Positions 24,858-29,018 of a DNA stretch of 34,582 nucleotides are shown here, one piece after another. Source of the stretch: a virus; UHGV virus genome UHGV-0129090. One strand, written 5' to 3'. The position numbers and the translations under genes were made by a program. Under the pieces are notes generated by a model. It did not search any database and was not told where the DNA came from. It saw only the letters and a program-made list of their open reading frames with translations. Each line of letters starts with the position of its first letter. Positions within the stretch are counted from its first letter, which is position 1.

Positions 24858-24881
24858 TAGCCCACTGTGAGTAGTGGGCTA
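24858..24881. repeat. Palindrome/hairpin TAGCCCACT-N6-AGTGGGCTA (member 1 of the AGCCCAC family)
   Basis: A 9-bp perfect stem in the 53-bp gap between the 157-aa and 218-aa genes. No T-run follows on either strand. Confidence 0.6.
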
Positions 24882-24886
24882 GATTA

Positions 24887-25360
24887 TTAGTTGGTTACTG
24901 TCATTGATAGAAGGCGAACTATAATTTCTGCTGCATCGCCTGTAATAGTGGTTGGTGGGTTATTATTTGGATCATATACCGTCACACTATTATAATCAGT
25001 GGGTACTACACGACCTATACCGGATAACCTTGCAGCATGGTAATCAGTGTTTTCAAATACACGATCTTCTTCTAATACATTATGAAAGCAAAACGTACCT
25101 AATGCTAAATCACTAATTTGATCTGGTTTAGTAGTGGGATTAGTACAGCGATTCTGTGCGAAGCTATGAAAAGCTGCTGCATCATCGATATGATCACCCC
25201 AATGTGATTTTTTATCGGTGTTTCCCTCATACCATGAATCATTATTCTCTACTACTGTATGACCAGTTTTAGTATTGTGTACTAATACAATTTCATTAGT
25301 ACGGCTACTTAGTGTCACTTCTACATCTGGAAGTGAAGGAATGTTTTTTATAATTTTCAT
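24887..25360 (-). CDS. Hypothetical protein (157 aa)
   Basis: A long co-oriented ORF with AAGGAAAG upstream. No motif recognised. Confidence 0.65.
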   Translation of the reverse strand: MKIIKNIPSLPDVEVTLSSRTNEIVLVHNTKTGHTVVENNDSWYEGNTDKKSHWGDHIDDAAAFHSFAQNRCTNPTTKPDQISDLALGTFCFHNVLEEDRVFENTDYHAARLSGIGRVVPTDYNSVTVYDPNNNPPTTITGDAAEIIVRLLSMTVTN

Positions 25361-25383
25361 TTACTTTCCTTATTAGATTAAAA

Positions 25384-25405
25384 AGCCCACTAATAAAAGT
25401 GGGCT
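25384..25405 (-). terminator. Hairpin AGCCCACT-N6-AGTGGGCT (member 2 of the AGCCCAC family); possible minus-strand attenuator
   Basis: An 8-bp perfect stem. On the minus strand it is followed by TTTTTAATCT. It lies between the 69-aa and 157-aa genes. Confidence 0.5.
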
Positions 25406-25411
25406 ATATTA

Positions 25412-25621
25412 TTAGTTAGTATCGAATAATGGCGGTATTTGTGGTATTTCTACTTCCCCTTCAATTGGTTTGCCGTATTGGTCTGCTACCTTTATTACAG
25501 TTTCCTTATAAGGATTAATACTATAATAGTGTTGATGGTCTTCGGTACTAACAATGATACGCTCAATACTCATATTATATTCCGTGATATTACGGATTGC
25601 TTTAATTAGTTTCTCTGACAT
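25412..25621 (-). CDS. Hypothetical protein (69 aa)
   Basis: A co-oriented ORF in tight spacing. No motif recognised. Confidence 0.5.
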   Translation of the reverse strand: MSEKLIKAIRNITEYNMSIERIIVSTEDHQHYYSINPYKETVIKVADQYGKPIEGEVEIPQIPPLFDTN

Positions 25622-25630
25622 ATATATCCC

Positions 25631-26017
25631 TTATTTTATTTTAACGCAGTTTTGAAAGTAGTAATTACGAGTATCAGATCTCAATAAGAAGATAAAAGTA
25701 ATATCGTTTTGCTCTTTACTTCCCATTGTTGCAAGGAAGTATCGCTGCCTATCATTATCATAAGCCATTGTCATTGAATCATTAGATTCTATTGGTCCGG
25801 TGGCGTGAGTCATTGCACCGAAGTTAAGGATAAAACCATCACTATTAACTTTAGCGTGACCTGCACCAGAATAAGAAGATTTTTCTACTGGAGTATCACC
25901 CAGCATTTCAACTACTTTCACATCACATTGATACAATCCCTGCTCTGGTAGAGAGTGAGTGTTAGCCAGTACCGAAGGAGCTACTAACAGTAATGCAGAT
26001 ACGATAACCTTTTTCAT
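25631..26017 (-). CDS. Secreted (periplasmic) protein, paralog 1 (128 aa)
   Basis: It has a Sec-type signal peptide MKKVIVSALLLVAPSVLA|NT. Two conserved Cys (LYQCDV near the N-terminus, FQNCVKI at the C-terminus) suggest a periplasmic disulfide. Confidence 0.7.
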   Translation of the reverse strand: MKKVIVSALLLVAPSVLANTHSLPEQGLYQCDVKVVEMLGDTPVEKSSYSGAGHAKVNSDGFILNFGAMTHATGPIESNDSMTMAYDNDRQRYFLATMGSKEQNDITFIFLLRSDTRNYYFQNCVKIK

Positions 26018-26026
26018 TTCTATTCC

Positions 26027-26407
26027 TTATTCAATAATACAATTGGAGAAGTTCAAAAATACGGGATTATTCTCATTGCTGACCATATACTGTGTTTTAC
26101 CATCGATTGCACTAATAATAATATCGTACTGGTCAGTATCTACGGCATAGGCCATCAGGCGACCGCTTTTAAGTTTTGAAACAGGGCTGAATGAAATATT
26201 CACATCCCTAAACTTCACACTAACAGCACGGTTATCAATACTCACATAACCAGTCATACCATAATAACCAGTCTTTACTACTCGCTTTCCTACCTGTTCC
26301 CACGATTCAACACCGCAACGATACAGACCATCATCAGGGAGTATTACATTTACTGCCAGTACCGAAGGGGCTACTAACAGTAATGCAGACAGTACAATCT
26401 TTTTCAT
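26027..26407 (-). CDS. Secreted (periplasmic) protein, paralog 2 (126 aa from MKKIVLS)
   Basis: Its signal peptide is nearly identical: MKKIVLSALLLVAPSVLA|VN. The same two-Cys framework is present (LYRCGV ... FSNCIIE). I set the start at 26407 by homology with paralog 1. Confidence 0.7.
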   Translation of the reverse strand: MKKIVLSALLLVAPSVLAVNVILPDDGLYRCGVESWEQVGKRVVKTGYYGMTGYVSIDNRAVSVKFRDVNISFSPVSKLKSGRLMAYAVDTDQYDIIISAIDGKTQYMVSNENNPVFLNFSNCIIE

Positions 26408-26500
26408 AAATTCATCCATTCGGGATTATCTACTTTATCAGAATCAATGGCATTGTTGATGCCAGATAATGACAGTGTTTTTGATTACGGCGACTGCAAT

Positions 26501-26587
26501 TTAATAAGTAGGGTTAATGTATTTTATTATATCATAGTAATATGCAGTCCCCATAACTAAAAGTACGGCAAATATTGTTTTCTTCAT
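26501..26587 (-). CDS. Unannotated 28-codon hydrophobic micro-ORF (MKKTIFAVLLVMGTAYYYDIIKYINPTY), coupled to the lipoprotein gene
   Basis: I translated this by hand. Its ATG shares one base with the TGA of the lipoprotein gene (TGATG). It has a signal/TM-like N-terminus. At 28 aa it is too short for the supplied ORF track. There is no strong SD, so it would rely on termination-reinitiation. Confidence 0.35.
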   Translation of the reverse strand: MKKTIFAVLLVMGTAYYYDIIKYINPTY

Positions 26588-27947: not shown

Positions 27948-28141
27948 AGCTTAATGTTCACGCGTTTTCTAGTTAGTAAGTTCAATAGTGCTTCGTTATA
28001 GGTAGTGTGCCACGTCTTACCATCACTAAAAGGCTTATTGATGTGTCGGGGATGCTTAGACATAGTGACCGCCCCTACCTTTCGGTTGTGATCGTCGAAA
28101 ACTTCGGTTATAAGTCCACCAGCAATACAACTAATACGCAT
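27944..28141 (-). CDS. Hypothetical protein (65 aa from MRISCIAGG)
   Basis: This uses the first in-frame ATG. The longer version starts at a GTG and looks non-protein-like. It has an ATGA overlap with the downstream gene. Confidence 0.45.
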   Translation of the reverse strand: MRISCIAGGLITEVFDDHNRKVGAVTMSKHPRHINKPFSDGKTWHTTYNEALLNLLTRKRVNIKL

Positions 28142-28264
28142 GTAAAGATCCCAGCAATGAAGAAAAAGAAATTTGCAGCCGCAAGGTAAGTAAAGGTTAA
28201 TTTTTTCATAGAGTGTCCATATTAACACTACCAGTATATTTCCGGTACTAGTAGTGTAAATTGA

Positions 28265-28558
28265 TTAATGTACGTTAGTAATTTCTTCGGATACTACTTC
28301 TAGTAATGAAGCGAAAGCACGTTCACCATCGAATCGGGCAATAGTGATCTTATCGGTTACACTCTTAGGTAGATTGATGTTCTTTTCCCAATGGAACAAG
28401 CCACCAGACATAAGAAACATACTGAATAATTCACGCTCATTATGACGGGAACTAATTACTACATGAAACATTCCCGTTACACGATTATCAATCTCGTTAA
28501 TCTTGAATCCTAAATCATGTGCCTTAATGATCAAATCAGTAGATACACCCTTAGACAT
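28265..28558 (-). CDS. Hypothetical protein (97 aa)
   Basis: A co-oriented ORF and the first sizeable gene downstream of the predicted minus-strand promoter at 28667-28695. No motif recognised. Confidence 0.6.
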   Translation of the reverse strand: MSKGVSTDLIIKAHDLGFKINEIDNRVTGMFHVVISSRHNERELFSMFLMSGGLFHWEKNINLPKSVTDKITIARFDGERAFASLLEVVSEEITNVH

Positions 28559-28637
28559 TTTCGATACTCCCTACGATTAGTAACAAGGTTATGATGACTA
28601 CAAATAGTACATGCTCTTTAGTGATAGTGAACGTCAT
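28551..28637 (-). CDS. Unannotated 28-codon single-TM micro-ORF (MTFTITKEHVLFVVIITLLLIVGSIENV)
   Basis: I translated this by hand. GAGGA lies 6 nt upstream of the ATG at 28637. Its end overlaps the start of the 97-aa gene by 8 nt (ATGTCTAA). It is the first ORF after the predicted promoter. Confidence 0.45.
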   Translation of the reverse strand: MTFTITKEHVLFVVIITLLLIVGSIENV

Positions 28638-28666
28638 GTTGTGTCCTCGTTGTATTGACACCACTG

Positions 28667-28695
28667 ATACTAGGATCATTAGTATCTAACGTCAA
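28667..28695 (-). promoter_or_regulatory. Sigma70-like promoter on the minus strand (TTGACG-17 nt-TAGTAT)
   Basis: The -35 TTGACG is plus 28690-28695 (cgtcaa). The -10 TAGTAT is plus 28667-28672 (atacta). The spacer is 17 nt. It would drive the micro-ORF, the 97-aa gene and onward. Confidence 0.45.
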
Positions 28696-28698
28696 CAC

Positions 28699-28744
28699 TA
28701 GTTACTAAAATAATTTATTAGTAGAAAACGCTTGATAGTAACTA
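28699..28744. promoter_or_regulatory. Two copies of the palindrome TAGTnACTA (28699-28707, 28736-28744) between and over the divergent promoters; candidate operators
   Basis: TAGTTACTA sits just upstream of the minus -35. TAGTAACTA overlaps the plus -35 (TTGA[TAGTAACTA]). A looser palindrome TACTAAAATAATTTATTAGTA lies between them. Confidence 0.35.
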
Positions 28745-28759
28745 ACGGTAGTGTATACT
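28732..28759 (+). promoter_or_regulatory. Sigma70-like promoter on the plus strand (TTGATA-16 nt-TATACT)
   Basis: The -35 is at 28732-28737 and the -10 at 28754-28759, about 40 nt upstream of the 60-aa plus-strand gene. Confidence 0.5.
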
Positions 28760-28799
28760 GTCTTTATTGAAGCAAAACACTACTACGAAGGGATATATA

Positions 28800-28982
28800 A
28801 TGAATACAGTAACTTACTTAGAACGCGGTAACATCACTGATATCATGGTTAACGATGTATATATGGGGGCGGTAGTAAAAGGTGACGATAACAAATATCG
28901 TACCGTACATAAGAACAATGCAGAATCTGGTACGTTTACTGCTTTCCACTTCGCAGCGTACCATGTAGAAAAAGCAGTATGA
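28800..28982 (+). CDS. Lone plus-strand early-region gene (60 aa, MNTVTYLERGNITDIMVNDVYMGAVVKGDDNKYRTVHKNN...)
   Basis: It has its own promoter (above), an SD (AAGGGA 6 nt before the ATG at 28800) and a strong terminator directly after the stop. The protein is beta-rich and has no HTH. It could be an immunity regulator or a moron. Confidence 0.6.
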   Translation: MNTVTYLERGNITDIMVNDVYMGAVVKGDDNKYRTVHKNNAESGTFTAFHFAAYHVEKAV

Positions 28983-28993
28983 TAGAAACGATG

Positions 28994-29018
28994 AAGCCCA
29001 CATTAAGTGGGCTTTTTT
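28994..29018 (+). terminator. Rho-independent terminator (member 3 of the AGCCCAC hairpin family)
   Basis: AAGCCCAC-ATTAA-GTGGGCTT is followed by TTTTTG. It overlaps the last codons of the convergent 174-aa gene. Confidence 0.75.

Follow-up and report, generated by a model that had tools for sequence, protein, structure and literature searches.

Why should three intergenic palindromes in a single phage genome be built on the same stem? The question is raised by UHGV virus genome UHGV-0129090, a stretch of 34,582 nucleotides (nt), hereafter the window, in which three palindromes (HP1, HP2 and HP3) share AGCCCAC/GTGGGCT. A sequence-only reading of this DNA had argued that unrelated terminators would not be expected to share a stem. 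It had proposed duplication of a mobile hairpin cassette, RNA elements recognised by one factor, or double-stranded operators for the protein that binds a cluster of iterons at 30.2 kb.

We consider it likely that the palindromes are terminator-type hairpins, two of which go back to a local duplication at an accessory-gene insertion while the third has a generic stem, and that none is linked to the iterons. All three would act as RNA stem-loops of the intrinsic-terminator type in a temperate phage integrated at yegD. HP3 would be the working Rho-independent terminator of a single plus-strand gene. HP2 would be a terminator, conserved in the family, that closes a minus-strand early and accessory operon, just before a gene of 128 amino acids (aa; 23744..24130) and the terminase genes. 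In the lineage of the window two genes, of 157 and 218 aa, would have been inserted immediately downstream of the HP2 terminator. The insertion would have doubled a 56-nt cassette of stop codon, hairpin and ribosome-binding site (RBS) and so given rise to HP1, and the U-tracts of both copies would then have decayed to UUUUAAUC at HP2 and AUUCAAUC at HP1. HP1 and HP2 would thus share the heptamer because of common descent, and HP3 because AAGCCC...GGGCTT is a very common terminator base.

Anatomy of the three hairpins

The palindromes are exactly as the sequence-only reading described them, and all are perfect (Table 1). As RNA they fold with energies of -14 to -21 kcal/mol and z-scores of -2.6 to -4.1, or -2.6 to -4.6 over all the hairpins folded (HP1, -15 kcal/mol, z = -3.95; HP2, -14 kcal/mol; HP3 on the plus strand, -20.9 kcal/mol). 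A scan of the whole window against Rfam at the gathering threshold found no family. HP1 begins 5 nt after the stop codon of the 157-aa gene (24887..25360), and the 218-aa gene (24177..24833) starts 24 nt beyond it; HP2 begins 6 nt after the stop of a 69-aa gene (25412..25621). HP3 starts 11 nt past the stop of the only plus-strand gene of the region (28767/28800..28982). All three had been called intergenic. This is so for HP1 and HP2, but on the minus strand the 5′ arm and loop of HP3 are the last four codons and stop of a 174-aa open reading frame (ORF; 29003..29527), whose stop codon (29003-29005) sits in the HP3 loop.

Only HP3 had looked like a textbook terminator, and the U-tracts agree with that. 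It is followed on the plus strand by six Ts, and the first two of these are part of the paired stem; on the minus strand it has no U-tract. At HP2 the minus strand reads UUUU and then AAUC, a partial tract, and HP1 has none. Intrinsic terminators and the intercistronic stem-loops that stabilise 3′ ends have the same build as these elements: a G+C-rich perfect stem of 8-9 base pairs (bp), a loop of 5-6 nt and a position 5-11 nt past a stop codon. HP3 and the orthologues of HP2 add a T-run on the transcribed strand in the layout A-tract, GCCC...GGGC, T-tract, and the pairing of HP3 is kept by covariation. The likeness is incomplete in that HP1 lacks a U-tract, the shortened U-tract of HP2 is followed directly by an RBS and a gene, and the end-of-operon copy is unusually invariant across deep lineages.

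How surprising is the common stem? On both strands of the window AGCCCAC occurs 7 times against 2.18 expected, and at least 7 occurrences were reached in 2 of 100 dinucleotide shuffles. Six of the seven are hairpin arms; the seventh (26689-26695) is coding, within ORF 26587..26967, so the heptamer is enriched but not restricted to intergenic DNA. The window has no excess of perfect hairpins (20 against 15.9 +/- 3.8 under a Markov null). In first-order Markov simulations three hairpins with a common 7-mer stem appeared in 1 run of 300, and two hairpins with a common stem in 17 of 300. Taken naively, the common stem of the three is non-random.

Table 1. Positions, strands and make-up of the hairpins, the repeated cassette, the inserted segment and the iterons in the window
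Feature	Position	Strand	Make-up
HP1	24858..24881	-	TAGCCCACT-GTGAGT-AGTGGGCTA; perfect 9-bp stem
HP2	25384..25405	-	AGCCCACT-AATAAA-AGTGGGCT; perfect 8-bp stem
HP3 with T-run	28994..29018 (palindrome 28994-29014)	+	AAGCCCAC-ATTAA-GTGGGCTT, then Ts on the plus strand
Cassette, copy 1	24840..24895	-	ACCAAC-TAA stop, TAATCT, hairpin, ATTCAATCTAACGAGGAAA (RBS)
Cassette, copy 2	25365..25420	-	ACTAAC-TAA stop, TAATAT, hairpin, TTTTAATCTAATAAGGAAA (RBS)
Accessory insertion, 1.2 kb (relative to L002 and L005)	24169..25379	-	218-aa gene, HP1, 157-aa gene
Iteron cluster (outside the hairpin family)	30144..30318		AATCCCAWTAGCCCATA twice, CCAATCGCCCATAA, inverted TATGGGCTAA, GGGGCTAATG twice

A duplicated cassette beside an accessory insertion

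Two proteins served to gather relatives of the window: the small terminase protein led to 1 genome locus and 14 viral contigs and, independently, a 227-aa protein to 13 viral loci. They are numbered here as loci or viral contigs. L001 (NZ_CM135810) and L002 (NZ_CM151386) are 95-96% identical prophages at the same yegD/yegI site in two Escherichia coli chromosomes, and these were the only two E. coli genomes found with a related prophage. A megablast search with positions 23400-30400 against 50,697 phage records gave no match.

HP1 and HP2 lie in the two copies of a 56-nt direct repeat (family D9; 80% identity). Its minus-strand consensus runs from ACY-AAC-TAA, the final two codons and stop of the upstream gene, through TAATMT and the hairpin to WTTYAATCTAAYRAGGAAA, which includes the RBS of the next gene. 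Because the cassette spans these last two codons and the stop, the 69-aa and 157-aa proteins both end in Thr-Asn-stop. Two hairpins within one repeat stand for one event and not for two; with HP1 and HP2 collapsed to one, the remaining stem match is that of two hairpins and is not significant (17 of 300). The window contains the two copies and no others. The loops also fit paralogy, running in a series from AATAAA (L002, L004, L005) through AATCAC (the L010 group) to ACTCAC, the HP1 loop, which is one change away from the AATCAC loop of the L010-type terminator.

The copies bracket accessory genes that are missing from relatives, and to this extent the proposed duplication of a hairpin cassette was borne out. 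At its right end the insertion adjoins the A/T-run of HP2, and its left end falls just short of the palindrome in the leader of the 128-aa gene (23744..24130). Homology between the window and L001 stops at about 25373, between the RBS and HP2. Neither inserted protein gave a match in Pfam, PHROGs, PADLOC or NCBIfam, and among viral contigs only L004 carries relatives of them. The gap between hairpin and start codon in the cassettes is 17-25 nt. A promoter scan found no minus-strand site within 24840-24895 or 25365-25420 and detected no promoter for the 157-aa or 218-aa gene.

How, then, are the inserted genes transcribed? The U-tracts of the window (UUUUAAUC at HP2, AUUCAAUC at HP1) can be set against UUUUUUAUU in L002, and decay in both copies is the pattern expected if newly inserted genes need read-through. 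HP2 is probably a leaky attenuator. HP1 is probably just an intercistronic stem-loop, a stabiliser of 3′ ends or a vestige, that would let transcription reach the inserted genes. The efficiencies of termination and read-through, like the stabilising role, we infer from these features.

Mobility of the cassette beyond this locus was not borne out. It was looked for in viral contigs, in metagenomes and in 5,426 E. coli genomes. The viral contigs yielded the L004 contig and one chance match without a partner arm. The metagenome contigs gave 50 matches, all due to chance, and the two of these that had a hairpin were generic terminators. Among the E. coli genomes only NZ_CM135810 carried it. We thus reject a widely mobile cassette.

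A narrower form of mobility deserves more thought. The cassette could be a recombination landing pad at which accessory ORFan genes are gained, lost or swapped, through microhomology or through palindrome-induced breaks and template switching, in addition to its role as a terminator; on this view the repeated stem would help to bring mosaicism about besides resulting from it. Both mosaic joints, the window/L002 indel and the end of window/L001 homology, fall within about 10-17 nt of HP2. The 157-aa gene lies between two cassette copies, as would be left by a circle of cassette and gene recombining with a resident cassette (the model of PMC2839356), and the duplication takes in the final two codons of the upstream gene (TN-stop). 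Depending on the lineage, 0, 1 or 4 extra genes separate the 227-aa gene from the hairpin, and the loop inversions described below are DNA-level, intra-strand events at a palindrome. Yet there are just two copies, in one sub-lineage, and the cassette flanks no other gene in the viral contigs, metagenomes or E. coli genomes. Breakpoints beside intergenic terminators are expected anyway, as insertions are tolerated there. We hold the landing pad to be a tentative possibility.

The closest known counterparts are the promoter-early stem-loop (PeSL) cassettes of T4-type phages (Arbiol et al. 2010, PMC2839356; Comeau et al. 2014, PMC4122927). These too are repeated intergenic motifs of stop codon, stem-loop and Shine-Dalgarno sequence in A+T-rich, variable regions; where close relatives have gained or lost genes, the motif marks the boundary, and one gene stands between two copies. 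By definition the repeated motif of a PeSL contains an early promoter of the sigma-70 type (-35 and -10; PMC2839356), and about 50 copies per genome occur in hyperplastic regions. The repeat described here has no sigma-70 promoter and is therefore not a PeSL. It has 2 copies, was not found elsewhere, and belongs to a temperate prophage of 33 kb and not to a T4-type myovirus.

The terminator reading with local duplication also brings the locus near to another kind of insertion. The morons of lambdoid and other temperate phages are an established concept, reportedly set out by Juhala et al. and Hendrix et al. in 2000: a gene with a promoter and a terminator of its own has come to lie between two genes that are neighbours in relatives. 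Likewise, the 157-aa and 218-aa genes lie between neighbours in L002 and L005, each preceded by a terminator-type hairpin. They differ from morons in having no detected promoter and in their apparent reliance on read-through of decayed terminators. The plus-strand small gene has a promoter-like site (28732-28759) and, in HP3, a terminator of its own, as a moron would, but it is kept in most relatives sampled and is not a sporadic insertion.

The stem in related phages

The comparison with related phages that the sequence-only reading had suggested shows that a hairpin of the HP2 type stands at the same place in many of them. The operon of the 227-aa gene closes, on the gene strand, with AGCCCAC(T)-loop-(A)GTGGGCT and a run of 6-7 T, and in most cases the 128-aa gene comes next. 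A lone hairpin with a T-run of this length occupies the HP2 position in L002, L005, L009, L010, L012, L014, L017/L146 and L147-149 (L002 and L005 carry TTTTTTATT), and the hairpin of L013 has a run of 5 T. What lies between the 227-aa gene and the hairpin varies. The hairpin follows the gene directly in L146/L017, L147, L148 and L149; about 740 nt, an ORF-sized gap, separates the two in L010, L012, L013 and L014; and L002 and L005 have four further genes there. The window and L004 are arranged like L002 except that the 157-aa and 218-aa genes are inserted beyond the hairpin and the cassette is doubled. L001 retains HP1 and has other genes where HP2 would be. The element has been replaced or lost in L003, L006-8, L011, L015, L016, L144 and L154.

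Two other palindromes lie near these positions. Directly after the stop of the 227-aa gene the window has an A+T-rich perfect palindrome of 13 bp (TAATAGCTACTAC-N9-GTAGTAGCTATTA, 27035-27069), at the position that is taken by the AGCCCAC terminator in L146-L149. Immediately upstream of the 128-aa gene (23744..24130) is an 11-bp palindrome (ATACTCCTATA-GCATG-TATAGGAGTAT, 24137-24163), whose 3′ arm on the minus strand contains the Shine-Dalgarno sequence AGGAG, 9 nt before the ATG. This leader palindrome is kept in L002, L005, L009, L010, L013 and L017; in the outlying relative L154 (5421-5452), which has no AGCCCAC hairpin, it shows a compensatory change (AAATACCTCATA..TATGAGGTATTT). It is probably a translational control hairpin that sequesters the Shine-Dalgarno sequence.

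HP3 has evolved differently. Its orthologues in L010, L012 and L014 are AAGCCCCG-ATTAA-CGGGGCTT, those in L003, L008 and L009 are AGCCCCA-TTA/TAA-TGGGGCT, and at the same position L144 has AAGCCCGC with the T-run on the opposite strand. Compensatory changes on both sides are seen in two pairs (5 cells), with a covariation score that only 1 of 500 shuffles reached, and so it is the structure of HP3 that is selected and not its sequence. Its identity with HP1 and HP2 amounts to the generic AAGCCC/GGGCTT base plus an inner AC pair, in the sub-lineage of the window only.

Upstream of HP3, between the plus-strand small gene and a 97-aa gene, promoter-like sites diverge within 28560-28766 (plus strand, 28732-28759, TTGATA-16-TATACT; minus strand, 28695-28667, TTGACG-17-TAGTAT). 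This region is a possible lysis/lysogeny switch, and the two divergent units that leave it would end at HP3 and at the HP2-type hairpin.

How generic the heptamer stem is can be judged from a scan of IMG/VR for AGCCCAC-N3-9-GTGGGCT, which matched at least 120 viral stretches in contigs of 29-67% G+C. Among the matches listed, 100 of 123 such hairpins (81%) are flanked by a run of T or A (five or more T among the next 8 nt downstream, or five or more A among the 8 nt before the hairpin), only L087 is a syntenic relative around the hairpin, and L090, L093, L095 and weaker matches share only structural genes with the window. A GGGCT end was found in about 10% of 87 unseeded terminator-like hairpins in 1.17 Mb of viral DNA; this sample was seeded by the AGCCCAC pattern, so that the frequency of GTGGGCT itself is not estimable from it. 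From the same 87 hairpins the chance that two random terminators share a 7-mer is about 0.7% (unbiased; the raw estimate is 1.8%). The argument that unrelated terminators should have different stems is thus weak, because AGCCCAC hairpins are frequent in unrelated viral contigs, the HP3 orthologues use other stems, and a match between two hairpins was common enough in the simulations.

The loops tell of a further process. The HP2 loop is TTTATT in the window (25392-25397) against AATAAA in L002 (6787-6792), L004 and L005, with identical stems. The HP3 loop shows TTAAT against ATTAA (window 29002-29006 against L010:4213-4217). A third pair, AACAC at L147:1558-1562 against GTGAT at L149:2380-2384, combines an inversion with one substitution (GTGAT is the reverse complement of ATCAC), and the 227-aa genes of these two phages are 99% identical in spite of the flipped loop. 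Such flips occur even between phages that are 97-99% identical in the DNA around the hairpin, and are the signature of template switching or inversion within a palindrome. Small loop inversions between short inverted repeats are well documented in plastid genomes (PMC6824564). As there, the loop at HP2 and HP3 is swapped for its exact reverse complement and the stems are kept; the difference is that these lie in phage terminators, where the flip is an incidental mutational signature of the palindrome and not a function. Since loops flip between near-identical phages, the loop carries no information, and recognition of the boxB kind is ruled out. A nut/boxB-type antitermination hairpin was rejected on the same ground, the loops being unrelated or mutual reverse complements, and there is no Rfam match.

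Is the stem itself read? The AGCCCAC(U)/(A)GUGGGCU stem could be an RNA element that one phage or host factor recognises by its sequence, for antitermination, processing or stability. At the end of the operon all seven pairs (14 of 14 nt) are kept in 10 copies from five deep lineages with zero covariation. Between those lineages the 227-aa protein has 43-56% identity, and third codon positions of its gene are saturated at 33-42%. Conservation does not extend to the bases next to the hairpin, and identity is limited to the stem and the T-run. Copies without a U-tract also occur between co-directional genes: HP1 is one, and L009:3677-3696 has AGCCCAC-TAAATT-GTGGGCT between two reverse-strand genes, with no U-tract in their direction, a non-terminator copy like HP1. 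However, the loops are diverse (AATAAA, ACTCAC, AATCAC, AACAC, GGTTAA) and flipped, which excludes factors of the N/boxB type that read loops. HP3 orthologues alter the stem with compensation, the same stem is an ordinary terminator in unrelated phages, several relatives lack the element (those listed above as having replaced or lost it), and there is no candidate binding protein that co-varies with it. Strong purifying selection would by itself be enough to keep a stem so short and so marginally stable from varying. The one hint of recognition is the invariant stem at a single position, nothing else favours it, and we judge such a factor improbable.

Several points weigh against the terminator reading. 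Termination is predicted here from sequence only, and two of the three hairpins in the window are not textbook terminators, HP1 having no U-tract and HP2 only 4-5 U. The end-of-operon stem, invariant without covariation, could mean sequence-specific recognition, which a plain terminator does not need. Covariation is seen elsewhere in related genomes (at HP3, at a 12-bp hairpin at 30847 and, in L154, at the leader palindrome), unlike at the end-of-operon stem. Strong purifying selection on a short and marginally stable terminator stem is sufficient to explain this invariance. A combined view, in which the end-of-operon AGCCCAC(T) stem-loop is a sequence-constrained island of identity over at least five lineages with saturated synonymous sites and serves as a promoter-less, PeSL-like landing pad for accessory ORFan genes in temperate enterobacterial phages, is read by a dedicated phage factor, or both, seems to us unlikely.

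Iterons and the setting of the hairpins

The remaining proposal was that the palindromes are double-stranded operators for the protein that binds the TAGCCCAT iterons, on the ground that the half-site differs from the iteron by one base. This holds for HP1 and for one arm of HP2 (7 of 8) but not for HP3 (6 of 8), and the true iteron is a longer unit of 14-17 nt (AATCCCAWTAGCCCATA, 17 nt); no more than TAGCCCA of it recurs in the hairpins. This 7-mer is found in both arms of HP1, in one of HP2 and three times in the iteron cluster, with 8 occurrences against 3.3 expected (at least 8 in 3 of 100 shuffles). Only those 7 nt of the unit are shared (6 for HP3), however, and the spacing from AGCCCAC to GTGGGCT is 5, 6, 7 or 8 nt across copies and relatives, a misfit for a dimeric protein that binds double-stranded DNA. 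The loops, moreover, are inverted.

The distribution of the two elements also differs. Of all the loci, the window and L001 alone have the iterons, and they alone have the 160-aa gene (30322..30804); the homologue in L011 is only 29% identical. The replication modules of other relatives bear repeats of other kinds. The co-occurrence of iterons and 160-aa gene makes the 160-aa protein the obvious candidate iteron binder. Hairpins are present in L002, L005, L009, L010, L012-14, L017 and L147-149. In L002 and L017 the whole early region is covered and TAGCCCAT is absent, and L010 keeps AGCCCACT hairpins although its iteron-like repeats are of another kind (ACTAAAAAACGA), so that none of these three phages with a covered early region has iterons of the window type. 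The comparative data bring the operator idea close to refutation, and we regard it as very improbable indeed.

Near the iterons, between the 201-aa and 160-aa genes, lies the hairpin with a 12-bp stem (GGCGTACTAGTG-N8-CACTAGTACGCC, 30847-30878). Its T-run is on the plus strand, antisense to the genes, and in relatives the stem differs, compensatory changes being numerous (L003/L008 GGCGTTATGGTG, L011 TGGCCTGTAGTG). A transcript that is antisense or comes from an origin region may end here.

Three other candidates for the AGCCCAC palindromes were rejected. An integron attC site does not fit, as the palindrome stops short of the flanks and there are no integron integrase and no core or inverse-core motifs. 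A cos or pac site was dismissed: the hairpin and the small terminase gene, which lies downstream, are 0.7-1.9 kb apart with the 128-aa gene between them, and the separate 290-nt intergenic stretch at 23456-23743 is a more probable site of packaging. The variable spacing of half-sites argues against a dyad for a late-promoter activator of the P2 Ogr type.

The window is a temperate-type E. coli prophage of about 33 kb and 38% G+C, with flanks of 45-48% G+C, and nearly all its ORFs are on the minus strand. It occupies yegD, a truncated copy of which adjoins the gene of a 532-aa serine recombinase (32206..33804, minus strand) at the right end. From there the minus strand carries, in order, the recombinase, RHH, 201-aa and 160-aa genes, the iteron cluster, and the 113-aa and 174-aa genes. 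HP3 and the convergent plus-strand small gene follow, then genes of 97, 94, 73, 227, 126 (a lipoprotein), 130, 128 and 69 aa. Last come HP2, the 157-aa gene, HP1, the 218-aa gene, the 128-aa gene (23744..24130), the 290-nt gap and the genes for small and large terminase, portal and capsid.

Searches of Pfam, PHROGs, PADLOC and NCBIfam with 8-10 proteins near the hairpins gave nothing useful except one weak match, of the 201-aa protein (30886..31491, minus strand) to an HNH homing-endonuclease model (PADLOC PDLC03687, E = 1e-5). In the accessory region two minus-strand ORFs (25631..26017 and 26027..26419) encode tandem paralogous small proteins with near-identical signal peptides (a 53-nt repeat, 89% identity). 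Just upstream of them on the gene strand, ORF 26587..26967 has a lipoprotein signal, and together they form a variable cluster of secreted proteins.

A common stem among the intergenic palindromes of a phage, then, need not indicate one binding protein. If the invariant end-of-operon stem were in truth sequence-specific, it would be a new regulatory or recombination site in yegD-integrating phages. On the reading that we prefer, the locus would be a small and clean example of how accessory genes are added beside a conserved terminator in an uncharacterised family of yegD-integrating prophages, and of how duplicated terminators may lose their U-tracts after the insertion, allowing read-through.

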